Sequence record: MH752840.1
Strand: one strand, 5' to 3'
Length of the DNA stretch: 64,000 nucleotides
From: Escherichia phage vB_EcoM-Pr121LW
This document shows, one piece after another, positions 26,811-57,101 of the stretch (its first letter is position 1; the number at the start of each line of letters is the position of its first letter). Under the pieces are notes generated by a model, which was not told the origin of the DNA, did not search any database, and worked only from the letters and a program-made list of their open reading frames with translations. The translations under genes were made by a program, and so were the position numbers.

Positions 26811-27257
26811 TCAGTCCTCGCATTTAACAAATTTTTCTACAGATCCGCCAAGCACAGCTTGTTGCTTGATGGCACTTGCTTCATCATAGTGGATAGACTT
26901 ATGTTCCGTACCTCCAAACTTACCTGTGTGGAAGGTGTGCACCCAAATCTCTTTAGGAAGGGATTTATTCTCTTCCTCCACCAACTCCCACATACCCCAC
27001 AAGTGATCTGTGATATCTTTGATGAAATATCCCTCTCCTAGGTTTGTATTCACACTATAGGCCGATTCGTGATTTCCGCAAATATAACGGAAGGCAGTGT
27101 ACTCTTTTCCTGGTGTGAAGTGGGTATCCATTAGTATAGCTGTTAAAGAATAAGGGTCTCGAAAGCCCAAGAACTTTAGTTTAACAATTTCGACATTTAC
27201 ATCTGCAAGATTGTCCATGACGATCTCCTCTGTTTGGTTGGTGAGATAATCATACAT
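26811..27257 (-). CDS. hypothetical protein with GNHE motif (degenerate calcineurin-like phosphoesterase?)
   Basis: 148 aa; ICGNHES and later HTFHTG resemble metallophosphatase motifs III and the GH motif, but motifs I and II are absent and an in-frame stop lies upstream. Confidence 0.35.
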   Translation of the reverse strand: MYDYLTNQTEEIVMDNLADVNVEIVKLKFLGFRDPYSLTAILMDTHFTPGKEYTAFRYICGNHESAYSVNTNLGEGYFIKDITDHLWGMWELVEEENKSLPKEIWVHTFHTGKFGGTEHKSIHYDEASAIKQQAVLGGSVEKFVKCED

Positions 27258-43724: not shown

Positions 43725-44207
43725 ATGTCAGATTTTATGTGGAAAGTTGGTTATTCCTCCCCTGAAATGTGTAAGGCCTGTTTTGTGAAAATAGGTCGCG
43801 AAGATATCGACAAAGTGATCCTTAAGTTTCGTGATGTGGCTGTGATCGGCAACCGAGTGCTTAAGCACTTAAAGAATCTGAAGCTCACCAAAAAGAAATT
43901 CTTCGGACTTTTCGAAGAGAAAGTTGATGCTTGGACCCATTGCATTCAGGAAGCTAAATCTCACTACAGTGCTATCGTTACCCCAGAACGGGTAGCCAAG
44001 ATGGAAGGACTCATCAACAGCACAGAGTTTGAGTGTCTGAAAGCTGCACTCGATAGTTATCCGAAATGCCTCAAGCACTTGGACAAGTATGTAGAAAAGG
44101 ATGGGGAAATGTATCTCACCCTGGACGCATACTATGAGATGCAAGAAATTTTAAATTTAGATTTGACATTGGTATCCACCGAGTATACAATAGGTATCCG
44201 GGTTTAA
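43725..44207 (+). CDS. hypothetical protein
   Basis: 160-aa ORF, RBS aaggagaagg; terminator follows. Confidence 0.4.
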   Translation: MSDFMWKVGYSSPEMCKACFVKIGREDIDKVILKFRDVAVIGNRVLKHLKNLKLTKKKFFGLFEEKVDAWTHCIQEAKSHYSAIVTPERVAKMEGLINSTEFECLKAALDSYPKCLKHLDKYVEKDGEMYLTLDAYYEMQEILNLDLTLVSTEYTIGIRV

Positions 44208-44258: not shown

Positions 44259-45023
44259 TTGAAATTTATCTACAAAGAACACTACCACAAAGGTGTTGTG
44301 TGGAGTCTATTTGACGGGTCTGGTGGTGCAGTCATTGACTGGGCAAAAGCTGGGTACCTGTGCCTGTGCTTTAATGCAGAAGGTGCTGATCACGGCAGTT
44401 ATGCAGAGGTGATAACCGATCATCCCAACATTCACTATGTGGATTATTGGATTGACCCATGGTTCCCTCAGGAAACTTTTTGCATGTACCCAGCTCCAGA
44501 CTTTATTCTTGCATTTCCTCCGTGCACGCATTTAGCGGTATCAGGTGCTGCACATTTTAAGAAAAAGCTGGCTAAGGACCCTATGATCCAAATTAATGCT
44601 GTAAAGGATGCTCGGGTTGCGGAAGAGCTGGGAGAGATTTACGATTGCCCGTGGCATGTAGAGAATCCTGTAGGTGTTATGTCCACACTGTGGCGCAAAC
44701 CTGATTACCGTTTTCATCCTTCTGACTATGGCGGGTATTTACCGGAGGATGATGTAAACCCTTGGTTTCCTGAATTTATAGCTCCACGCGATGCCTATCC
44801 AAAAATAACTTGCGGCTGGATAGGTAATGGATTTATAATCCCGGCCACAAAACCTGTCCCGCAAATAGTTGACGCGGTTAGCGGGTATTCCATGCAACAC
44901 GCTAAGCTAGGTGGAAAAAGTGCAAGGACGAAGATGATTCGAAGCCTCACACCCCGTGGCTGGGCAAAAGCCGTATTCTTAGCAAACGAGCCTGTAGTAA
45001 GGAGCAGAATTAATGGGAAGTAA
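44259..45023 (+). CDS. DNA cytosine-5 methyltransferase-like protein (short form)
   Basis: Motif I-like LFDGSGGAVIDWAKAG, motif IV-like FPPCTHLAVSG, motif VI-like HVENPVGV; start ambiguous (TTG 44259 after RBS aggag, or GTG 44229 inside terminator). Confidence 0.4.
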   Translation: MKFIYKEHYHKGVVWSLFDGSGGAVIDWAKAGYLCLCFNAEGADHGSYAEVITDHPNIHYVDYWIDPWFPQETFCMYPAPDFILAFPPCTHLAVSGAAHFKKKLAKDPMIQINAVKDARVAEELGEIYDCPWHVENPVGVMSTLWRKPDYRFHPSDYGGYLPEDDVNPWFPEFIAPRDAYPKITCGWIGNGFIIPATKPVPQIVDAVSGYSMQHAKLGGKSARTKMIRSLTPRGWAKAVFLANEPVVRSRINGK

Positions 45024-47091
45024 ATTTATGGCATCTGCATATAACCGTTTCGGTGAGCCAAACCCGAAAGCAACTAAGTATAAAAGTGGGGGAAGTGTGA
45101 AACGAGACTATCGTGATGAAAAAGAAGTTGAAACTGTAGAGACTGTTTTAGAAAATACTAAAATCGTCCCTGTCCCACAACAAAATATTGGTCTGATGGC
45201 TGCACAATATTTTGGTGTGCGATCAGCATTGTCCCAAGAAGACGGTGTGACAGTTACTGCAACATATTTCCCATATTACGACCGCTACGGGAATCTGTCC
45301 GGTTTCAAAAAGCGTGACTGGACGATCCCCAAAGAGCAACGTGGGCACTTTACGACGGTTGGGATCGTAAAGGCTAACTCCCAGATGTTTGGGCAAAAGC
45401 TGTGTGCATCTTCTAACAACCGTAAGCAGATTAACGTTTGTGAGGGGGAAGGCGATGTTATTGCAGCATGGCAGGCTGCATATCAGATACAAGTAAAAGG
45501 GATTCTCACCAACGCTAAAGCCCCGGCAAAGGTGAAACAGTGGGCTAAAGAGGTCCAGGACGGGATCGATGCAGTTATCAACGGGGGTGATCTGGCAGGA
45601 AAACCCTGCCTACCTTTTGTTGGAATTAACTGTGGATGTGCAAACGCAGTAGATACTTTTGCAAACAATGAGAAATTTATCCGTAGCTACGGAACAGTGG
45701 TCCTTGCAATGGACAACGATGCAGCTAACGAGGTAGAGAAGCAAAAACACGTTATCAAAGGTGTTGAAGCCACACATAATATCGCGGCATTTTTGATGGC
45801 TGATAACGTTTACCACGTGGAATACCCCAGCGAGGTAAACGATCCTGACGGTGTAAAAGATATCCGTGACATGCTGAAGGCTAAAAAGCTGGAAGATATT
45901 GTCAACATGTTCCGTCACCCAGTCAAATATGTGCCCGATGCTGTATCTGATTTAGAAGACTTCTCCATTGAATCTCTTCGTAAGAAGACTTCTAATGGCG
46001 TAGATATCAGCGCGGAGTTCCCTAAATTACAGAAGATGCTGAAAGGACTCCACAAAGGCACCTTGATGATGCTGACAGGCCCATCTGGCGGTGGTAAAAC
46101 AACTGTAGCCAAGAAACTAGAGCACTGCATTGCAAAATACTTGATGGATCCGACATGCCCTAAAGCCGATGATTATGAAGAGGATGATCGCCTGTGTCTG
46201 ATTCACCTTGAAGAGGACCCTGAGGAAGCAATTAACTCTCTGTACGCCAACCAGTTGGGGTTTGATGTTAAAGAGTTTGTTGAAGACCCTAGTCAGTTCC
46301 TGACTGATCAGGAGCATGCTGAGATTCACCAATCTTGGGCCAAGGCTGGAAAAATCAAAGTGTTCAAGCATTTTGGGTCTATTCCTGTAGATGAGTTGAT
46401 CACTAAGCTTAAACAAATGGTGTGTCTGTATCACTGCCGTTACATTGTGCTGGATCACCTGTCCATGGTAATTTCAGGGCTTAATGTTAAGGATGAGCGC
46501 AAAGAACTTGACATGGCTATGACGCAACTAGCCGCGTTCTGTAAGCAGTTTAATGTATTTATCTTGGTGATCGCTCACCTGAAACGCACAGAGATTGTGC
46601 CTCCAAAGGACAAGGATGGGAATCCGTTACCTTTCTGGTATCCTGTACGAAAAGAGAACCTTCGGGGTAGTGCCGGATTGGAGCAACTTAGCTGGGTAGT
46701 TGTTGGGGTGGAGGCAGAAGAGATGGTGGATCGTTCCCGTGGACGTGTCCGACTGGTAGGTCTTAAAAACCGCCCAGCAAAAACGTTAGGCATTGCGGAT
46801 ACCTTAGTTATGGATCCCCACACAGGTAAGTTCCATGATGCCAGCAACTGGTACTGGGACAAAGAAATGCAGATGTTCACAGACGGCGAAGGTGGGGAAG
46901 TTGTTTGGAGACCTCAAGCTATGTTTGAGGATCAAGAGCACGCAGTTGTAGAAACACCTGTAGGTAGGGTTGTGGCTGATAAGGTTGTAACTCCTACTGT
47001 TAACCCTGTTGACACACAGGAAGACCTTCCGTATGATGATCCGTCCTCTGACCCTGTTCCTGGCTTTGAAGACGATGAAACACCTTTTTAA
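45013..47091 (+). CDS. bifunctional DNA primase / DnaB-family helicase
   Basis: Toprim-like EGEGDVIAAW in N-half; Walker A MLTGPSGGGKTT and helicase motifs in C-half; 692 aa. Confidence 0.75.
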   Translation: MGSKFMASAYNRFGEPNPKATKYKSGGSVKRDYRDEKEVETVETVLENTKIVPVPQQNIGLMAAQYFGVRSALSQEDGVTVTATYFPYYDRYGNLSGFKKRDWTIPKEQRGHFTTVGIVKANSQMFGQKLCASSNNRKQINVCEGEGDVIAAWQAAYQIQVKGILTNAKAPAKVKQWAKEVQDGIDAVINGGDLAGKPCLPFVGINCGCANAVDTFANNEKFIRSYGTVVLAMDNDAANEVEKQKHVIKGVEATHNIAAFLMADNVYHVEYPSEVNDPDGVKDIRDMLKAKKLEDIVNMFRHPVKYVPDAVSDLEDFSIESLRKKTSNGVDISAEFPKLQKMLKGLHKGTLMMLTGPSGGGKTTVAKKLEHCIAKYLMDPTCPKADDYEEDDRLCLIHLEEDPEEAINSLYANQLGFDVKEFVEDPSQFLTDQEHAEIHQSWAKAGKIKVFKHFGSIPVDELITKLKQMVCLYHCRYIVLDHLSMVISGLNVKDERKELDMAMTQLAAFCKQFNVFILVIAHLKRTEIVPPKDKDGNPLPFWYPVRKENLRGSAGLEQLSWVVVGVEAEEMVDRSRGRVRLVGLKNRPAKTLGIADTLVMDPHTGKFHDASNWYWDKEMQMFTDGEGGEVVWRPQAMFEDQEHAVVETPVGRVVADKVVTPTVNPVDTQEDLPYDDPSSDPVPGFEDDETPF

Positions 47092-47149: not shown

Positions 47150-49927
47150 ATGAGTATGTATAGCTTCGATTTTGAGGCCTCTGGGCTTTTGGAAGATCCA
47201 GACCTTTATTATCACTGCGGCCTGTTTAAAGCGTTGAATAAGAACCGTTTTATGCTGTTCCTTCCTCTGAATGACCGCACACACTACTCCGAGGAGGATA
47301 TAGAGAAGGCTAAGAACTTTATTCTGGCAAAGAAAACTCTTTATAAGGATTTTGAAGTTCGCATAGCAGATTTTTCGGAGTTGGAAGGTTGGCTTACAGG
47401 AAATTCTGACTGGTCACCAACAGCTTTGAACTGCCATAACTGCTACAGTTATGACTTTATGCTGATGGAGAGATTGTCCGGTATTCATTTTGATATGTTC
47501 CGTGACCCTAAGTGTATGGGGACTATCAACGACCACCAGGTTAATCTGTTTGATACGTTGGCGATGAGCCGAATCTTGTGGCCTGATCGCCCTTTACCAA
47601 AAGGTTGTCCGGACTCTGTATTCAACCCGGTTACTAAGAAAATGCAGCCTGTTGGTCCTCACGGACTTATGGCATGGGGCTACGCCCTTGGTAACCAGAA
47701 AGTTCAAATTGATGACTGGCGCGATCTTCCGTTGTGGAAGTATGTGGATCGTGTATTCGAGGACGTTATCATCCAGGAGCTGCTCTGGAAAGAGCTGGTA
47801 GCGGAATCAAAAGGTGTATTCTACGGCAAATCTGACATGCAGAACTTTATGTACGATCCTGCCAAAGAGAAGCCGAAAGGGTTCAAGAAGATCACCTGGA
47901 AGAACGCATTACGCCGAGGCATGCTGCAGCACTTCCTGATGGAACTGCAGGCCCGTCAGGGTGTGTATTTTGACATAGATGGAGCTATTGCTTTACGTGA
48001 CCGTTGCGATGCGTGGATGAAAGAAATCGCTGATCGTGTTGAACCTCAACTTCCTTTAAAAGAGTTATCAATATCTCAGCGGCCCAAGTTCCCTGAAAAG
48101 CCGTTTAACCAAGACGGGACAATCTCTAATAATGGTTGGAAATGGTTAAAAGATAAGCTTGGCTATCCTGTAGACATGAGCGCTTTAGATTTCAAATCCC
48201 CGCCTAAGCGAGCATTTACCTCTACAGGAGATGTCAGCAAGATGGGGATAAAATGGTGTGAAGAGATGGGCTGCAAAGACCCCGATAAGATGGCTGATTT
48301 CTTGAGAGGCTATATTAAGGGCACTTCCACACCTCACCCTTTGCCTAAAGAGCTGATGGATCAGGCAATAAGTGATCTACAGCAGAAGCGAATGCCGGAC
48401 TGCAAGATACCTATGAAAATCAGCAATCAGGACGACATTAAGCGGTATCTGATCAGTGCTGGCTGGCTACCGACAATGTGGAGAACTAAGGATGTAACTA
48501 AAGATAGCAAGAAGAAAGCTCTACCTGATGCGGATGTTGATGCACGAGTATATGCATATATGGACGAGCTTTTAGAGTCAGAGTATTGTGACCTGATTAT
48601 CAACTTCTGGAACAAAACTGATGCCAAGTTCCAGACAACTGTGCACAAGTTCCGAAGCTTTCCTAACTCTGAAAGGATTAAAAAGGAAGTATTCGGGAAA
48701 ATACGTAGAAAAGCCAGAGCACTTATTACTTCTCCGCAACTGAAAGATACGTTTGGACACCTGTGTCCGAATCTTGAAAAATTGAACGGAGAGATGGCTA
48801 AAGATATCGTCTTGTGGTTATCATTGCGAAACCGCAGATCAGTCCTTGACCCAATCAAGGAGGATAAGGTTGATACTGGTCTTCTTAATCACCCACGTTT
48901 GAAGATTGACCATAAGCTTCCTGCTAAAAGCTCTGGATTAACAAACACTTCCAGACAGAAACACAGTATTTGTGCAAACATGCCTAAACCATCCCCCAAA
49001 GTGGTTATGGGTAAAGAGATGCGCAGTCTGTGGGGTGTTCCTCCTGGATACTTTCAGATCGGTATTGACGGGTCCAACTTAGAGCAGCTTATCGGGGCTT
49101 GGGGTGCCTTTGAGTTCGACAACGGCTTGTATTATGATGTTGTAAGTAACGGGGACGCACACCAAAACAATGCTGAGGCATATACAAAAGTAGCAGGCAG
49201 AGAGGTGTCTCGTAACGACGGTAAACCTATCACGTATGGGGTTATGTACGGGGCACAAAAAGATAAAGTTGCAGATATGCTGGACATCTCTCCAGAGTTG
49301 GGACAAAGGGTAATCGATGCACTCTGGGATGCCAACCCTGGTCTCAAGGGGCGCAAAGAGGATCTGGAGAAATTCTGGGAAGCAACTGGTAAGAAGTTTA
49401 TCTACTCTTTTGATGGTCATGCTATCTGGACCAGATCTAAACACTCTTTACTTAATGCATACCAACAGAATGGTGGTGCATCGCTGTGTGACTTAGTTGG
49501 GATACTTATGCACCACCAGATGGTGAAGCGTGGGTGGTACGATGAAGGTGTTCGTCGTATTATCTATTACCATGATGAGTACCAACTTCAGGTCCCTGAC
49601 ACTCCTAAGTATAAGACTGTGTACACCTTCGACACAATTGAAGAACTGGAAGCATTTAAGGCAGAGCAGGAGGCCAAACTTCATGTGTTCGACGGTCATA
49701 AGTACAAAAAGGCACGCAAGGATGAGGACGGAAACGAAGTGGTTGACAGAGACGGAAACACGGTGTACGATCCTATCCTGAACGATGACGGAAAGCTTGA
49801 ACTTATCTGGAGCCCTGTGGGTGAAATGGTGGTGCATTGCTTCTGGCAAGCTTCTAAAATGATGGGAGTCCCGTTCCAGATCACAGGTGAATACTTGTGT
49901 GGTCGTAACTGGGGTGATTGTCACTAA
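47150..49927 (+). CDS. family A DNA polymerase with 3-prime to 5-prime exonuclease domain
   Basis: Exo I-like FDFEASG; motif A IDGSNLEQL; motif B RNDGKPITYGVMYG; motif C YYHDEYQL; 925 aa. Confidence 0.8.
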   Translation: MSMYSFDFEASGLLEDPDLYYHCGLFKALNKNRFMLFLPLNDRTHYSEEDIEKAKNFILAKKTLYKDFEVRIADFSELEGWLTGNSDWSPTALNCHNCYSYDFMLMERLSGIHFDMFRDPKCMGTINDHQVNLFDTLAMSRILWPDRPLPKGCPDSVFNPVTKKMQPVGPHGLMAWGYALGNQKVQIDDWRDLPLWKYVDRVFEDVIIQELLWKELVAESKGVFYGKSDMQNFMYDPAKEKPKGFKKITWKNALRRGMLQHFLMELQARQGVYFDIDGAIALRDRCDAWMKEIADRVEPQLPLKELSISQRPKFPEKPFNQDGTISNNGWKWLKDKLGYPVDMSALDFKSPPKRAFTSTGDVSKMGIKWCEEMGCKDPDKMADFLRGYIKGTSTPHPLPKELMDQAISDLQQKRMPDCKIPMKISNQDDIKRYLISAGWLPTMWRTKDVTKDSKKKALPDADVDARVYAYMDELLESEYCDLIINFWNKTDAKFQTTVHKFRSFPNSERIKKEVFGKIRRKARALITSPQLKDTFGHLCPNLEKLNGEMAKDIVLWLSLRNRRSVLDPIKEDKVDTGLLNHPRLKIDHKLPAKSSGLTNTSRQKHSICANMPKPSPKVVMGKEMRSLWGVPPGYFQIGIDGSNLEQLIGAWGAFEFDNGLYYDVVSNGDAHQNNAEAYTKVAGREVSRNDGKPITYGVMYGAQKDKVADMLDISPELGQRVIDALWDANPGLKGRKEDLEKFWEATGKKFIYSFDGHAIWTRSKHSLLNAYQQNGGASLCDLVGILMHHQMVKRGWYDEGVRRIIYYHDEYQLQVPDTPKYKTVYTFDTIEELEAFKAEQEAKLHVFDGHKYKKARKDEDGNEVVDRDGNTVYDPILNDDGKLELIWSPVGEMVVHCFWQASKMMGVPFQITGEYLCGRNWGDCH

Positions 49928-49976
49928 TGTAAACTATCAGCACAGGGAGGTGCTGTCAAGCAAAGAGGAAACTTTT

Positions 49977-50261
49977 ATGGTAGTAGAACCAACAAAAACA
50001 TTTACATCCATGACTATTCCTGTTATTATGCAGGTGGAGTGTGTTCAGGTATCTCAAGTGTGGCCTGGCACCAAAATCCCAACAGGGCCTGATTTCTTTC
50101 AGGTTGGGAAAGTGTACAATGTCTGGAAGGCACCAGATTGTTACCCTTTCATTAAAGATGACCGTGGGATGCTGTGGTACCTTGGAAATGACTTGACACT
50201 GCACCTTGGGAATACTATTATTGCAGTATTCAGACTTAACAAGAAGGAGACCGATCAATGA
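49977..50261 (+). CDS. small protein, paralog family member
   Basis: ATG 49977 with RBS aagagga; shares FxxGKxY ... KDDxGxxWY motif with neighbours. Confidence 0.4.
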   Translation: MVVEPTKTFTSMTIPVIMQVECVQVSQVWPGTKIPTGPDFFQVGKVYNVWKAPDCYPFIKDDRGMLWYLGNDLTLHLGNTIIAVFRLNKKETDQ

Positions 50262-50485
50262 CGACTTTGGTTAAAGCTACCTTTGTAGAAGAAAAGATGA
50301 CAGACCTGTCATTCTTTAAAGAAGGAAAGACCTACGAGGTTTATTACGATAAAGCTCGTGCAAACAAAATGATTAAAGACGAGGAAGGGGTTGCCTGGTA
50401 TATCTCTCACCTGGCAAACGGTGAGTATCATATCTACGGGACCACTTTGCTTGCCAAGTTTGTAGTTGTTGAAGAGGACCTATGA
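50258..50485 (+). CDS. small protein, paralog family member
   Basis: FFKEGKTYEVYY ... IKDEEGVAWYI. Confidence 0.4.
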   Translation: MTTLVKATFVEEKMTDLSFFKEGKTYEVYYDKARANKMIKDEEGVAWYISHLANGEYHIYGTTLLAKFVVVEEDL

Positions 50486-50676
50486 AAGCAAAGTATCTTG
50501 CTGAAGGTATGAATAGGTATTTTACCCTTGGTGAAGAATATTGGCCCTTTACAAACAACGGCGATGTCTACGTGAAAGATAATTTCGGCACGCCGTGGTT
50601 TCTGCACTCTAATGGGCTGGGATACTCTATTTACTGCGGTGCAGTGAACAACACAACTCTTGCAGAGTTCGTTTAG
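50482..50676 (+). CDS. small protein, paralog family member
   Basis: FTLGEEYWPF ... VKDNFGTPWFL. Confidence 0.4.
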   Translation: MKAKYLAEGMNRYFTLGEEYWPFTNNGDVYVKDNFGTPWFLHSNGLGYSIYCGAVNNTTLAEFV

Positions 50677-50686
50677 AGGAGGTAGG

Positions 50687-51058
50687 ATGCTAGTAAAAGG
50701 TACCCACACAGTCAAACAACGTATTGAAGTTGAGATTGATGACTGTGAGCTGAAGCATATTTTACGGTCATGCTCCAACGTTTTGCTCCTTAGTATTCTT
50801 CAGGAGCGAGCGGAGAACGAGTTCTTAAATGCATTGGCAGGCCGTCCAGGTGACTTTTGTGTGCGTAAGCGTGGTGACAACAAGTCATGGTTGTGGGAAA
50901 TCGATGCCGACTGGGATTACCACAAAAATGAGGGCATAGATGAGCCTATTCGTGAACTGACGGACAAAGAGATTCAGATGTACAATGAAGTTTGTCATTG
51001 GGCAACACGCCAACAAATTTACCTAGACCCTGTGTGGCTGATTGAAAATAGCCATTGA
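50687..51058 (+). CDS. hypothetical protein
   Basis: ATG 50687 with RBS gaggagg; track start 50660 overlaps upstream gene. Confidence 0.4.
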   Translation: MLVKGTHTVKQRIEVEIDDCELKHILRSCSNVLLLSILQERAENEFLNALAGRPGDFCVRKRGDNKSWLWEIDADWDYHKNEGIDEPIRELTDKEIQMYNEVCHWATRQQIYLDPVWLIENSH

Positions 51059-51134
51059 CAAGAAGTAAGATTAGATATAAGATGCTTCACACAAACAAAG
51101 CGTTGATTTTTAAATAACTAAGGAGACTGCCAAG

Positions 51135-51389
51135 ATGAAAATTACTTTGAAGCCAGAATGCGTTGCAAATGACCGAGCTTTTAAAGATTGCACAGTCGGT
51201 GCAATCTATGAAGCAGAGTTTTGTGAGAACCCTCTGGTAAAAGCCCTTCTGGAAGAAGGGGCCCCTTTATCACAAGAAGAGATTGATGAGCTGGAAAACT
51301 CAGCACAGTGCCTTACCTTTAAAGATGATGAAGGAGACTCTGTCTGGTGCACTGTTAATGAGGTAGTTTTTGTAAAACCTGAACATTAA
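51135..51389 (+). CDS. small protein, paralog family member
   Basis: AFKDCTVGAIYEAEF ... FKDDEGDSVWCT; paralog of 51453 ORF. Confidence 0.4.
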   Translation: MKITLKPECVANDRAFKDCTVGAIYEAEFCENPLVKALLEEGAPLSQEEIDELENSAQCLTFKDDEGDSVWCTVNEVVFVKPEH

Positions 51390-51392
51390 TAC

Positions 51393-51430
51393 TTGACAAC
51401 AGTGATAGGGCCTAATATAATGGCCCTATC
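51393..51430 (+). promoter_or_regulatory. consensus sigma70 promoter (TTGACA-17-TATAAT) embedded in 9-bp perfect inverted repeat
   Basis: -35 51393-51398, -10 51416-51421; palindrome gatagggcc (51404-51412) / ggccctatc (51422-51430) centred on the -10. Confidence 0.6.
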
Positions 51431-51452
51431 AAAACGAAAGGGGACCACAGCA

Positions 51453-51725
51453 ATGACCAAACAATATCAACGAATTAAAGCCAAGGTTAAGCCAGACTAT
51501 CTGGAGAAAGACTCTGCTTTTCGGGACTGCACAGCCGACAAAGTTTACACAGGGGCCGTCCTGTTGAACGATGAACTTGAAGTAGATATTCTGGGTAAAG
51601 AGGCCACTATTAAGGACGACCAAGGCGATTATGTTTGCTGCACCACACGTGAGCTAGAAATCTTAGAATACTTCGGTGAAATCTTCACCTCTCTTGATGA
51701 TTACTTAGATGATGAGGAAGCGTGA
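51453..51725 (+). CDS. small protein, paralog family member
   Basis: ATG 51453 with RBS aaagggga; AFRDCTADKVYTGAV ... IKDDQGDYVCCT. Confidence 0.4.
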   Translation: MTKQYQRIKAKVKPDYLEKDSAFRDCTADKVYTGAVLLNDELEVDILGKEATIKDDQGDYVCCTTRELEILEYFGEIFTSLDDYLDDEEA

Positions 51726-52114
51726 TGAAAAATATTTGGGATATCAATATCTTTGAAGCCTCTAAGCTTGATGGTGCTGATGGAGTGATTATGGTATCTG
51801 ATGGCAAGGCAACACTAACTTCCGGAGATATCATCTATGCCTTGGACGAGCTGGCGCTTCTGAAATCTACCGGTAACACTCTAGAGGAGCGTCTTCAAGG
51901 CTTCGCCTTCAAAGAAGGTACAAATACAGCCATGATGTGCACCACACGGACAGTTCAGATGGGTAACGGTGTCTATATGATTATTGCTGTGTGTCCTAAA
52001 TTCAGCAACGTCAACAAAGATGATGCTGACGCGGTGAACGATGTGGTTGTTCTCTTCGTGGGTGACGCTATGGCAGATCTGATGAATGCAGGGGAAGCAG
52101 CAAATGAAGACTGA
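51725..52114 (+). CDS. hypothetical protein
   Basis: ATG 51725 overlapping upstream stop (GTGATG). Confidence 0.4.
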   Translation: MKNIWDINIFEASKLDGADGVIMVSDGKATLTSGDIIYALDELALLKSTGNTLEERLQGFAFKEGTNTAMMCTTRTVQMGNGVYMIIAVCPKFSNVNKDDADAVNDVVVLFVGDAMADLMNAGEAANED

Positions 52115-52406
52115 AAACATCACCCCAGCAGGGTTCTTAAAAGTATACCGTGAACTGCTGTATACTACAGAGGACAGTGTTCTAGAGTATCCAGAATATC
52201 TCTTGCTGTATAAGTATCTGCAGGAGGCTGGTGAAAATCTGCCAGTTAGTGCAGAAGGCGGTCCGAACTGGGTATACAGCGCATGGAGAAAGGTTGACAT
52301 TATCCCAGACCCAGGCAAAGATATGGTAGTTTGGCAGCTTATCAACAACATCGGGATTCCAATCTTTGATGAAGCTGTTAAAATCTATTTTGAACTTGAC
52401 GATTAA
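52104..52406 (+). CDS. hypothetical protein
   Basis: ATG 52104; track start 52086 overlaps upstream gene. Confidence 0.4.
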   Translation: MKTENITPAGFLKVYRELLYTTEDSVLEYPEYLLLYKYLQEAGENLPVSAEGGPNWVYSAWRKVDIIPDPGKDMVVWQLINNIGIPIFDEAVKIYFELDD

Positions 52407-52423
52407 TATCAGGAGACCTTAAG

Positions 52424-52669
52424 ATGACTGAAGTAGTTGCTCGCGCAGGACAGAAAGTACGTTGTGTTGAAGTAGGTTTTGGTGGCAAAGGGTGTCAAAA
52501 CTTGACTCAAGGTAAGGAATACGCTGTTATCTCTGGTGGTGGCGACGAAAGTATTGTGTTCGAGGGCCACATCCTGGATGCTGAAAACTTTGAAATCTTT
52601 GACGACGATGGGGATCCGATCACCTGCCTGCTGGACGGGAATTGGGGAACTTTCGAAGTGATTGGCTAA
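52424..52669 (+). CDS. small protein, paralog family member
   Basis: LTQGKEYAVIS ... FDDDGDPITCLL; RBS aggagacc. Confidence 0.4.
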   Translation: MTEVVARAGQKVRCVEVGFGGKGCQNLTQGKEYAVISGGGDESIVFEGHILDAENFEIFDDDGDPITCLLDGNWGTFEVIG

Positions 52670-52752
52670 CAAATACCTATTGTAATTTACAGAAGGGGAT
52701 GCTAAAATAGTGTCTCCTTCTATGTTGTTCAAATAAAATCGGAGATTCCATA

Positions 52753-53118
52753 ATGGAACAAATGAACGATCAAGAGTCGGTTGCGATGAACGAGCAAGAA
52801 CAACCTCAAGAATTTTTCTTAGGGTTAAGTAAAGATCAAGTGTCTCTTTTGCTAGTGCTTTCTTCTTTCATGGGAAGACTTCAGGAGCTCACACAACAAC
52901 CGGAGGCTGAACAATTATTTCAGGCTCTGCGTGAAGAAGAAAAATATCGTCGTTTGGACTATGCCTTAGGTTGGGTAGCTCAACAACGAGATATGCTAAT
53001 GGCCCTCTCTGGGACCACAAGTTTTGCAATGGGCCTATTGGCTCAAGTTCAGGACAAATTAATTCAAGCAGGGTTTGCACACACGGCAAACACTAACGAA
53101 GAACAAGGAGACAAATAA
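52753..53118 (+). CDS. hypothetical protein
   Basis: 121-aa ORF, RBS cggaga, immediately upstream of SSB. Confidence 0.4.
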   Translation: MEQMNDQESVAMNEQEQPQEFFLGLSKDQVSLLLVLSSFMGRLQELTQQPEAEQLFQALREEEKYRRLDYALGWVAQQRDMLMALSGTTSFAMGLLAQVQDKLIQAGFAHTANTNEEQGDK

Positions 53119-54344
53119 TGAGCGTTATTCAACAATTTGCTAACCCGATGAATCCGCGTGAAACTGTTTTACTGGCTCACGGTATGATCAAGCGTGTTAG
53201 CATCAAACCTATTAAAGGAGCTGATCCTGCAACAGGTATTAAAACCACCGTGTGGCAAGGTAAGAAAATTGAATCCAGCCACACCATCTCTTTACTGATT
53301 TCTGAACTGGATTCCTCTGATAACCTACTTCAAGGCGGTGAAGAAGTCTGGATCAGCATGGGTGATAAGCTGCTTAAACCTGGCCATCAAGACTCTGTCT
53401 CTGTTAAGATTGATGACAAGTGGGAAACCGTAACGCCAGGATGGATCGTAAATATTCCTTTGAAGGCAAACGAGCATAACGGTAAGACCTATTACAAAGG
53501 CTCACTGGCTAAGATGGTCAAGCTGGGTGCAGGAGAGGCTCCAGCAGCGACTCAGCAGCAAAAACAGCAACAAGGTGCACAATCACAAGGCCAGAAGCAG
53601 AAACCTCAGCAGAATGCCAATCAGGACGTTTTACGCATCTATGGCGATGTGACTCAGATTGTTGGCAACGTGGTTACTGTTAATGACCACAAGATCGGCG
53701 AAGGTGCTATGGTTGTCACGGATGAGCAGCTTAAAGACCTGGTGGTAGGTGGTCGTGTTGCAGCCATTGTTGACAAAGACACCGGAAACATTATCAGTGG
53801 TTTCAAAGCCTATCCACCTAAGGCAGAGAACGGCACCCAAGGTTCTGGTGGCAAGCGTAAATCCTCTTACGACCCTATTGGTGTGGAGACTGGGCATAGC
53901 ATCAATGCGTTGCAAATCATCCTGGATCGCGGGTTTAAGGTAGACGACCCACTAGGTGTGGCTAAAGCACTGCACGTAGTCACCATTGAGCTTAAGAAAG
54001 AGTATGCTCAAGCCACCAACCGAACTGAAGATGAAGTAGGTGCCAGTGTCGGTAATGCGGTGTTGAACGCTTGTCGCCGTATTGACAAGAAAACGAAAGT
54101 TGATGATTTTGCAGCGGCAATTACTGCAGAAGCAAAAGATGTGTTGACTAATCTGGCTGAGCCGTTGTACGATTGGATCAAGAACGGTGCTGGGTCAACT
54201 GACCATCAAGAACCTCAGGCTGCCAAACAGGAAGCAGCTCCACAGCAAAACACTGTAGACGCTCCTCCTGTAAATGATGGGGAAGACGACCCGATGGATC
54301 AGAATCCAGCACAGTACGCCTTTGATGATGACATCCCCTTCTAA
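53118..54344 (+). CDS. ssb: single-stranded DNA-binding protein with acidic C-terminal tail
   Basis: C-terminus ends YAFDDDIPF, matching the DDDIPF partner-binding tail of bacterial SSB; Gln-rich linker; replication-module context. Confidence 0.6.
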   Translation: MSVIQQFANPMNPRETVLLAHGMIKRVSIKPIKGADPATGIKTTVWQGKKIESSHTISLLISELDSSDNLLQGGEEVWISMGDKLLKPGHQDSVSVKIDDKWETVTPGWIVNIPLKANEHNGKTYYKGSLAKMVKLGAGEAPAATQQQKQQQGAQSQGQKQKPQQNANQDVLRIYGDVTQIVGNVVTVNDHKIGEGAMVVTDEQLKDLVVGGRVAAIVDKDTGNIISGFKAYPPKAENGTQGSGGKRKSSYDPIGVETGHSINALQIILDRGFKVDDPLGVAKALHVVTIELKKEYAQATNRTEDEVGASVGNAVLNACRRIDKKTKVDDFAAAITAEAKDVLTNLAEPLYDWIKNGAGSTDHQEPQAAKQEAAPQQNTVDAPPVNDGEDDPMDQNPAQYAFDDDIPF

Positions 54345-55184: not shown

Positions 55185-55610
55185 ATGATCTATGAAATGC
55201 CAAAACTGATTCATGACGATGCCCAAAACGCTCACACCATTATTATGGGTAAGCGCATGGATATTATTTGTCATAAAGATTTCTGGGAAGGGAGTTACTT
55301 CACGGAATATTTTGGTAAACTGGATAATGGTCTGCTGATCCAGTTCTACACCGATGCGGAAAACAATATCTGCTGGGAGTTCGAAACTGAAGATATCCAT
55401 AAACTTTTCACCTTCCTAGGTATTAAGGTTGAGGCCAAGTTCGAAGAAGGTGAGTGCGACGATTGTGGATTCTACGAGGTAACAGATTTCTATCTCCCAA
55501 GTGGTGAGAACCTTTACTATGAAAGCCACTTCGGCAACTCAAATATGCCACAAGGTTGGGATGAGTTTTTTGAAATTGTGGAAGAGGAGCTGGCATACCG
55601 TGATTATTGA
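55185..55610 (+). CDS. hypothetical protein
   Basis: 141-aa ORF, RBS ggagaa. Confidence 0.4.
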   Translation: MIYEMPKLIHDDAQNAHTIIMGKRMDIICHKDFWEGSYFTEYFGKLDNGLLIQFYTDAENNICWEFETEDIHKLFTFLGIKVEAKFEEGECDDCGFYEVTDFYLPSGENLYYESHFGNSNMPQGWDEFFEIVEEELAYRDY

Positions 55611-56058
55611 TACTGTAGAGGGAGATTTAATCTCCCTTTTTAAGAGCGGCGCTGGTCACCTGATCCACGGTTGTAACTGCTTCCACACAATGGGCAAGGG
55701 GATAGCAAAACAGATTGCCCGTGAGTTCCCTCAAGCATTGGCAGCTGACAAAGAGACCAGACATGGTTGCCTAAGTAAACTGGGTGCGTTCTCCCGATGG
55801 GAGCACTTATCTCCGAGAGGTATTGTCTACGGAATCAATCTGTATACTCAGTTCTACCCAGGACCTAATGCTGAATATTTCTCAATCCTGAAAGGCTTTG
55901 AGCTAGTCAATGAGGTATTCAGTGGATCGACTTTACCATTCTACATCCCTAAGATCGGGTGCGGCATAGGCGGTTTGAAGTGGGAGCACGTAGAGGACGT
56001 TATTAACCTTGCCACTTTTGATATGAATATTATCGTGGTGGAGTACAAAAAGTGTTGA
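55600..56058 (+). CDS. macro-domain protein (Macro_2-like, ADP-ribose binding/processing)
   Basis: GTG 55600 with RBS gaggag 12 nt upstream; HGCNCFHTMGKGIAKQI and IPKIGCGIGGL match macro-domain phosphate-binding loops. Confidence 0.6.
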   Translation: MIIDTVEGDLISLFKSGAGHLIHGCNCFHTMGKGIAKQIAREFPQALAADKETRHGCLSKLGAFSRWEHLSPRGIVYGINLYTQFYPGPNAEYFSILKGFELVNEVFSGSTLPFYIPKIGCGIGGLKWEHVEDVINLATFDMNIIVVEYKKC

Positions 56059-56507: not shown

Positions 56508-56535
56508 TTGACATCTGAAAACTGCGGTGTATAAT
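56508..56535 (+). promoter_or_regulatory. sigma70-type promoter (TTGACA-16-TATAAT)
   Basis: Consensus hexamers with 16-nt spacer. Confidence 0.6.
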
Positions 56536-56768: not shown

Positions 56769-57101
56769 ATGGTAACATTGGAAAGACGTAAAGCTATCGC
56801 CGCCACACTGGCAGACATCTTTTGGGATTGCAACTTAAAAGATACCCGAAATTGTGGCGCATCTGTAGATGTATTATTCCCACGGCCTACCATTGTTGCA
56901 ATGGGAAACCTGTCAAACGTAGTGTACGGAGCATGGGACAAAGAAGGTGGATTCTATATCTGGCAACCTGACTACGGAGCCTGGAAAGAGGTAAGGGGTG
57001 CGGTTGACTTTGGGCCTACAAGTGCTAAGATGGATGGCTGGGAAATTTATGTTGGAAACGACATGAAGCTGAAAGGCGAGATTGTTTACTGGTTGCCTTA
57101 A
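56769..57101 (+). CDS. hypothetical protein
   Basis: 110-aa ORF. Confidence 0.4.
   Translation: MVTLERRKAIAATLADIFWDCNLKDTRNCGASVDVLFPRPTIVAMGNLSNVVYGAWDKEGGFYIWQPDYGAWKEVRGAVDFGPTSAKMDGWEIYVGNDMKLKGEIVYWLP

Follow-up and report, generated by a model that had tools for sequence, protein, structure and literature searches.

Six small open reading frames (ORFs), designated A to F here, are clustered on the plus strand of Escherichia phage vB_EcoM-Pr121LW (MH752840.1), between positions 49,977 and 52,669 of the 64,000-nt stretch of that genome that was analyzed (the window). A, B, C, and F encode one phage-specific family of single-domain proteins of ~60–75 residues. D and E are, on their sequences, certainly paralogs of each other and probably, short of proof, a distant offshoot of this family. 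The B protein is predicted to fold into a small β-barrel resembling Gp54 of phage Bas11, a direct trigger of a bacterial immune sensor. We consider this statement of family and fold, taken as a whole, very likely to be correct. The role that we propose is put forward far more tentatively: the proteins may be early accessory protein-binding factors that serve in host takeover or anti-defense or act as defense triggers. With family, fold, and function blended, this is the best explanation overall, and we give it a slightly better than even chance.

The cluster was noticed in a reading of the sequence alone, which described the six ORFs as a single family sharing a two-part motif, FxxGKxY and KDDxGxxW. 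All six ORFs are present on the plus strand where that reading placed them, each with an AGGAG-like ribosome-binding site 6–9 nt 5′ of its ATG, and both halves of the motif are there as quoted. Among 45 small proteins from a greedy gene set, five carry the pattern [KF]-D-[DEN]-x-G, compared with 0.28 expected by shuffling and a maximum of three in 500 shuffles, and F is a sixth carrier (FDDDG) that was masked from the greedy set by a longer antisense ORF. The sequence-only reading had proposed that the family should be abandoned if the motif did not rise above composition. The excess of five to six carriers argues that it does, but the motif was defined post hoc, and the family call was therefore based on alignment statistics instead.

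In pairwise comparisons, blastp linked A to B (28.9 bits), B to C (23.5 bits), and D to E (42 bits); across these groups, it found only matches of 5–12 residues around KDDxG. When hidden Markov models (HMMs) were built for A/B/C, D/E, and F, none found either of the other groups. At this level, A, B, and C make up one group, D and E another, and F a third, rather than all six forming one family. The A/B/C profile was then used in an exhaustive HMMER search over 1.84 billion representative proteins, and only 11 reached E ≤ 0.001: A-, B-, and C-like orthologs (two of them divergent, the B-like P0045 and the C-like P0046), four long repeat proteins, and P0050, a eukaryote-like low-complexity repeat protein whose relationship was judged spurious. 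Repeat units were excised from the long proteins, and an HMM built from these units alone was searched in the 1240 ORFs of the window and related loci. This repeat-only HMM recovered B (E = 1.1e-7), C (8e-7), A (1e-5), and F (7e-4), each of which accordingly matches a profile built without the tested sequence; D and E gave E values of 4–7 in the same search.

Alignment of a superfamily profile with hhalign gave a probability of 92% for F (P = 6.5e-7) and 38% for D/E (P = 3.4e-4). With a profile enlarged by new paralogs, the value for D/E was 57% (P = 1e-4) over 43 columns, reaching from β1 to the DDxG hairpin. The best non-self matches of the D/E profile among the 424 ORFs of the window were B and F. 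PHROG 17459 was weakly matched by D (9e-5), E (3.5e-3), and the repeat protein P0051 (2.4e-4), and the PHROG matches of D and E to each other were reciprocal at ~1e-5. What stands of the six-member motif family is the ORFs, the motif, the A/B/C/F family, and the D–E paralogy; the link that would join D/E to the rest is weak. The further claim of looser relatives at 56769 and 57360 found no support: neither ORF matched any family HMM at E ≤ 10, and each has one private PHROG without cross-matches.

The six proteins were already catalogued as separate PHROGs without assigned function. A has its own PHROG (12922), which cross-matches that of B; the PHROG of C (12802) is also matched by the repeat protein P0047 at 3.6e-6; and that of F (4927) is matched by the repeat proteins P0051 (3e-10) and P0049 (1.5e-4). 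F also has distant homologs in Klebsiella and Pantoea siphophages. The FxxGKxY...DDxG small-barrel domain is spread over PHROGs 12623, 12802, 12922, 4927, 3523, 10169, and others, and it has no Pfam entry. Scans of Pfam and NCBIfam assigned no family to A–F. Weak matches of F (14.5 bits, E = 0.038) and P0051 (21.8 bits, E = 2e-4) to Pfam DUF7244 (PF23896) suggest a related short barrel domain, but both scores lie under the 27-bit gathering cut-off, and A–E did not match it. Word-indexed searches for homologs of B, of F, and of D/E (the last as a profile) got no further than close Vequintavirus orthologs (at least 75% identity for B and F; orthologs of either paralog for D/E), and a tblastn search with E detected no distant relatives beyond that genus. 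A separate minus-strand ORF at 26811–27257 (148 amino acids, PHROG 15992) was repeatedly the best sub-threshold match to the family HMMs (E = 0.09–0.8), and its Bas48 ortholog contains HFTPGKEYTAF; it may be a further remote family member.

The fold of B was modeled with AlphaFold2 on a 14-sequence alignment. The model has a mean predicted local distance difference test score (pLDDT) of 91.4 and a predicted template modeling score (pTM) of 0.79, and all five models scored 89–91. It shows a six-stranded SH3-related β-barrel, with β1, a short helix in a long β1–β2 loop, and then five strands. The only close match in the PDB was Gp54 of phage Bas11 (9AXB), and the six strands and prominent β1–β2 loop of the 9AXB fold are both predicted for B. 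In the model, the glycine of FxxGKxY sits directly before β2, DDxG forms the tight β3–β4 hairpin turn, and the tryptophan opens β4; the conserved residues, placed at turns and strand starts, are a fold signature rather than a sign of a catalytic site. E was predicted to form a five-stranded SH3-like barrel with short helices, whose five antiparallel strands superpose on SH3/KOW domains. The two models share the same order of elements: β1, short helix in a long loop, β2, β3, turn, β4. Among the closest known systems are other SH3-like small β-barrels (SH3, KOW, FeoA, Ski2-insertion, and RecD SH3-like domains). A Foldseek search of the B model against the BFVD predicted viral structures returned many small uncharacterized proteins with template modeling (TM) scores of 0.7–0.8, mostly from phages named T1-like (Drexlerviridae-type) and often several per genome; further matches were to proteins of Cronobacter phage CR9 and of Klebsiella phages and to an Enterococcus phage protein with DUF3310. 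The sequence-only reading had called the family unrecognized, which remains true of Pfam and NCBIfam, but the modeled B structure matches the one solved for Gp54.

Gp54 of Bas11 is the second direct trigger of the fused toxin-antitoxin CapRelSJ46 (Zhang et al., Nature 2024, PMC11578894). It binds CapRelSJ46 with a dissociation constant of 0.8 µM, partly unfolding and adding strands to the sheet of the CapRel pseudo-zinc-finger (β-sheet augmentation); G24 and I25 lie in the interface, and G24D cuts affinity at least 20-fold in a protein that is still folded (PMC11578894). The Gp54 sequence starts MQDQIDAKVIRRNPELTPGIFKKGIEITIDLEEMVCYHSGLTWKV. In an hhalign alignment that was not significant, Gp54 F21, G24, G40, and W43 stand opposite B F20, G23, G44, and W47, so that the interface residues G24 and I25 would be equivalent to the motif glycine and the residue after it. 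The two are alike in size (66 amino acids, compared with 64–94 here), in the F-x-x-G and G-x-x-W positions that this non-significant alignment equates, and in being encoded by small non-structural phage genes without known function among other small genes. In contrast, Gp54 lacks the tyrosine and the acidic DDxG turn, having YHSG instead, and comes from a Drexlerviridae siphophage, whereas the cluster belongs to a Vequintavirus. Over the 21 kb of Bas11 examined, the Gp54 profile finds only a single copy, unlike the tandem multi-paralog cluster described here. In that same stretch, the vequintavirus profile matched gp48 (E = 3.3e-4), with weaker matches to gp61 and gp71.

The four long proteins recovered by the A/B/C profile extend the family to other architectures. 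P0047 contains four copies of the domain, P0048 five, and P0051 five to six, and P0049 has two followed by DUF3310; the tandem-repeat and DUF3310-fused proteins are in PHROGs 3523, 10169, 16833, and 3249. They share with the cluster proteins significant matches to the A/B/C profile and the pattern FT-x-GK-x-Y...DD-x-G. They differ in being multi-domain proteins of 204–571 amino acids with two to six copies and in being encoded by other phages; a ~17-kb phi29-like contig and one of 61 kb are among the sources. In P0049, the DUF3310 portion matches PHROGs labeled nucleotide kinase. The domain, as identified by its sequence, is modular and occurs alone, in four to six tandem copies, or fused to DUF3310 (nucleotide-kinase type). 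The N terminus of T7 gp1.7 (nucleotide kinase, DUF3310) was examined as another carrier, and the domain was absent.

Copy number and sequence both change quickly in related phages. A scan of the genome of Bas48, a close vequintavirus relative, revealed two more members outside the cluster, bas48_0183 and bas48_0142. Divergent vequintavirus-like contigs (L016–L018) carry seven A/B/C-type copies together with orthologs of D, E, and F at the same position. These contigs also have extra genes between the polymerase and the A-like gene, as well as an Ead/Ea22-like gene of 200 amino acids just after the A-like gene; L016 is a 136.8-kb contig within assembly GCA_012894635.1 and is probably a phage co-assembled with its host. 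Compared with this divergent lineage, the members retain 43–73% protein identity, with nonsynonymous divergence (dN) of 0.20–0.58, whereas the polymerase retains 90% with dN of 0.074. The ratio of dN to synonymous divergence (dS) was 0.09–0.14 in the family where dS was measurable, and dS was otherwise saturated, so this test is only partly informative. The cluster genes are constrained but fast evolving. In other genera of Vequintavirinae and in Vibrio phage ICP1, which share the polymerase, no orthologs were detectable in the polymerase-adjacent regions of Seunavirus 4MG, Mydovirus VLCpiM5a and Ro1, or ICP1, and Certrevirus F4M1E has one 64-amino-acid member, upstream of its polymerase. The extra Bas48 copies, the seven-copy lineage, and the fast divergence make the case for an expanded, diverging family of small proteins stronger than the sequence-only reading could show; the description applies to A, B, C, and F and is plausible for D and E.

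Near-consensus σ70 promoters, defined as having one mismatch or none and a 17-nt spacer, occur nine times in the window, compared with 0.52 expected, and none of 100 shuffles reached nine. Those on the plus strand include sites at 44163, 47009 (before the polymerase), 50193, 51393, 56055, and 59364. Host RNA polymerase therefore probably transcribes these genes, with early expression, and host-type promoters seem to be used heavily by the phage throughout the block. The −10 hexamer of the E promoter lies in the 9-nt loop of a perfect 10-bp inverted repeat at 51403–51412 and 51422–51431 (TGATAGGGCC / GGCCCTATCA); the repeat could be an operator or a hairpin located where the gene D transcript ends. 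The E start at 51453 is the more plausible one because the start annotated in Bas48 (equivalent to 51420) falls inside the −10 box. Another perfect σ70 site, with a 16-nt spacer, lies at 56508.

In the role that we propose, host RNA polymerase would transcribe the cluster genes early, and their products, which carry no catalytic signature, would be protein-binding modules, each paralog adapted to its own host (or phage) target. The contacts would be made through exposed edge strands and the β1–β2 loop, in the way that Gp54 clamps the CapRelSJ46 pseudo-zinc-finger. The role would likely be accessory, in host takeover or defense inhibition, and it would follow that single paralogs could also set off CapRel-like sensors. 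Host takeover or anti-defense was likewise the guess of the sequence-only reading, and it agrees with the speculation of the Gp54 authors. General scans of Pfam, PHROGs, NCBIfam, and the PDB gave no match to a known anti-defense protein, and no dedicated anti-defense library was searched. In the literature, no vequintavirus escape mutants or functional data were found for the cluster genes, and a later paper citing Gp54 added nothing on its function.

Several observations weigh against this account. The link to Gp54 rests on predicted structure, with no significant sequence similarity. The cluster proteins do not count as members of the Pfam Gp54 family (PF25180, "Phage antiviral trigger protein Gp54") by its defining sequence criterion: none of A–F matched at E ≤ 1, whereas Gp54 itself scored 116 bits against a gathering score of 27 bits. 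Comparison with the Gp54 family by hhalign was non-significant (P = 0.006–0.18; against a six-sequence Gp54 alignment, 0.012 for the B-family profile and 0.006 for the vequintavirus-paralog profile). A Gp54-family HMM ranked B at the top of the 946 Bas48 ORFs, but with an E value of 0.068 that is not significant, and PDB sequence searches with the B-family and superfamily profiles returned nothing relevant and did not find 9AXB. The structure models cover B and E of the six ORFs, and that of E resembles generic SH3/KOW barrels, with 9AXB absent from its top 60 matches. Gp54, whose own function is unknown, is non-essential and non-toxic; its authors suggest that it may inhibit another defense system, and its close homologs in Bas5, Bas8, Bas10, and SECphi27 do not trigger CapRel (PMC11578894); therefore, the fold transfers no function. 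The promoters are consensus matches only. Finally, the A/B/C and repeat HMMs miss D and E (E = 3–7), and the hhalign probability that joins them to the family is only 38–57%. These last two results would also be expected if D and E, possibly with F, formed an independent acidic SH3-like family in which KDDxG is a convergent β-hairpin turn, and D-x-x-G hairpin turns are common. In that case, the six proteins would represent two or three unrelated families encoded next to one another. An independent origin is possible, but we think it the less probable course for D and E: the hhalign P value of ~1e-4 is obtained over columns that are in register with the motif, the D/E profile has B and F as its two best non-self matches, PHROG 17459 is common to D, E, and P0051, and the B and E models agree in secondary-structure order. 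The homology of F to the family is well supported (hhalign 92%).

At the other extreme, the short proteins, the non-significant pairwise scores across groups, and the post hoc motif might be taken to mean that the motif arose by chance or composition and that there is no family. This we consider hardly credible, given the blastp scores within the groups, the recovery of A, B, C, and F by the repeat-protein profile, the motif excess, the confident B model with its specific PDB match, and orthologs that stay intact down to 43–73% identity at saturated dS. The absence of a family is refuted for A, B, C, and F and for the D–E pair, and it survives only for the link of D/E to the rest. The position of the cluster invites a different role. 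It does lie inside a replication module, as first described, between the DNA polymerase and a 408-amino-acid protein and downstream of a primase-helicase and a Dcm-like methyltransferase. The 408-amino-acid protein ends in ...DDDIPF and the primase-helicase in ...DDETPF, C termini that resemble the partner-binding tip of the E. coli single-stranded DNA-binding protein (SSB; DFDDDIPF). SH3-like folds often bind short peptide motifs, and the cluster proteins could thus be replication accessory adaptors that dock on the acidic tails of the primase-helicase or the SSB-like 408-amino-acid protein, or on the polymerase; the presence of the genes in ~115 of the 117 matching Vequintavirus records also favors such a role. 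However, bas48_0183 and bas48_0142 are far from replication genes (the former in the nrd cluster), and copy number varies between close lineages (three vs seven A/B/C-type copies). Moreover, Seunavirus, Mydovirus, and ICP1 have the same polymerase and primase without detectable members adjoining them, Certrevirus has one elsewhere, and the proteins evolve three to eight times faster than the polymerase. We consider the adaptor role improbable. Rather less probable again is that the acidic proteins D, E, and F are DNA or nucleic-acid mimics of the Ocr/ArdA kind, acting as anti-restriction factors or decoys for nucleoid proteins. A net charge of −10 to −12 and an isoelectric point (pI) of 4.1–4.2 in 81–90 residues, in genes behind strong σ70-like promoters, agree with that idea, and DNA mimics are classically small, acidic proteins made early.

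As far as our searches show, four points are new: the model-based structural link of these PHROGs to Gp54; the finding that one domain unites several PHROGs with the tandem-repeat proteins and the DUF3310 fusions; the arrays of multiple copies, variable in number, in vequintaviruses; and the implication that the "rare" Gp54 topology is common among phage small proteins. Gp54 of Bas11 belongs to a very small set of phage proteins for which direct binding and activation of a bacterial immune sensor have been demonstrated. If the fold assignment is true, the Gp54 fold extends to a second, unrelated phage group, to variable multi-copy arrays, and to tandem-repeat and fusion proteins. It would also provide a family-level alignment, conserved surface positions, and natural variants with which to probe binding and the sensing or blocking of defense, as well as a fold-level identity for several unannotated PHROGs. 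In practical terms, the result offers a short list of testable genes in publicly available BASEL phages rather than a new mechanism.

Table 1. Coordinates of the cluster ORFs, associated promoters, flanking genes, and additional members in phage Bas48 (positions in the window unless an accession is given)
Feature	Coordinates	Strand	Description
Primase-helicase	45013–47091		C terminus ...GFEDDETPF
DNA polymerase	47150–49927		5′ neighbor of the cluster
ORF A	49977–50261	+	94 amino acids; N-terminal extension and longer β1–β2 loop; FFQVGKVYNVW and IKDDRGMLWYL
σ70-like promoter	50193–50221	+	11/12 consensus, 17-nt spacer; within the 3′ end of A, 5′ of B
ORF B	50258–50485	+	75 amino acids; central family member
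ORF C	50482–50676	+	64 amino acids; A/B/C-type; start overlaps the B stop (ATGA)
σ70-like promoter	51055–51083	+	10/12 consensus match; 5′ of D
ORF D	51135–51389	+	84 amino acids; net charge −12; pI 4.1–4.2 (range for D–F); ~25-residue insertion not in E
Perfect σ70 consensus and inverted repeat	51393–51431	+	TTGACA-17-TATAAT at 51393–51421; 5′ of E
ORF E	51453–51725	+	90 amino acids; net charge −12; pI 4.1–4.2 (range for D–F); acidic C-terminal tail
ORF F	52424–52669	+	81 amino acids; net charge −10; pI 4.1–4.2 (range for D–F); insertion between the motif halves
408-amino-acid protein	53118–54344		3′ of the cluster; C terminus ...AFDDDIPF; PHROG 4477, unknown function
bas48_0183	MZ501054 109956–110192	−	78 amino acids; E = 3.5e-8; between the anaerobic ribonucleotide reductase activator and reductase genes
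bas48_0142	MZ501054 96221–96472	−	E = 0.0018

The region from 49900 to 52750 is 98.9% identical to Escherichia phage LL12 and 80–99% identical to 117 phage records, nearly all of them from Vequintavirus (rV5-like coliphages), a genus of myoviruses. In phage Bas48 of the BASEL collection (CarlMeissner), the equivalent stretch holds nine "hypothetical protein" genes (bas48_0077 to bas48_0085 across the cluster, three of them unrelated to A–F) between the DNA polymerase and the 408-amino-acid protein, and the Dcm-like methyltransferase and primase-helicase lie upstream of it. A–F are each annotated as hypothetical in Bas48 and ~115 other Vequintavirus genomes. Judging from its C terminus, the 408-amino-acid protein may be the SSB of the phage or may act as a decoy for host proteins that interact with SSB. 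Sixteen GenBank records of the MG0656xx series, titled "Campylobacter phage" with Campylobacter jejuni as host and unannotated, also match this region, and those listed are 96.7%–97.3% identical; they are likely mislabeled or contaminant genomes.

The DNA polymerase match is broken into two to three pieces by HNH homing endonuclease genes in APECc02, HeinrichReichert, FV3, rV5_ev146, vB_Kpn_K54_rec4, and GEC_vB_MG, and the DNA polymerase gene of this window is uninterrupted. Between E and F, an ORF of 106 amino acids (52086–52406) matches Pfam DUF7238 (E = 7e-8). Its product is 96% identical to the divergent-lineage ortholog, compared with 43–73% for its neighbors, and is unusually conserved in these fast-evolving surroundings. 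A few kilobases downstream of the cluster, the gene at 55501–56058 has orthologs in L016 and L018 with a faint match to the Pfam Macro domain and may encode an ADP-ribose-binding or -hydrolyzing protein.

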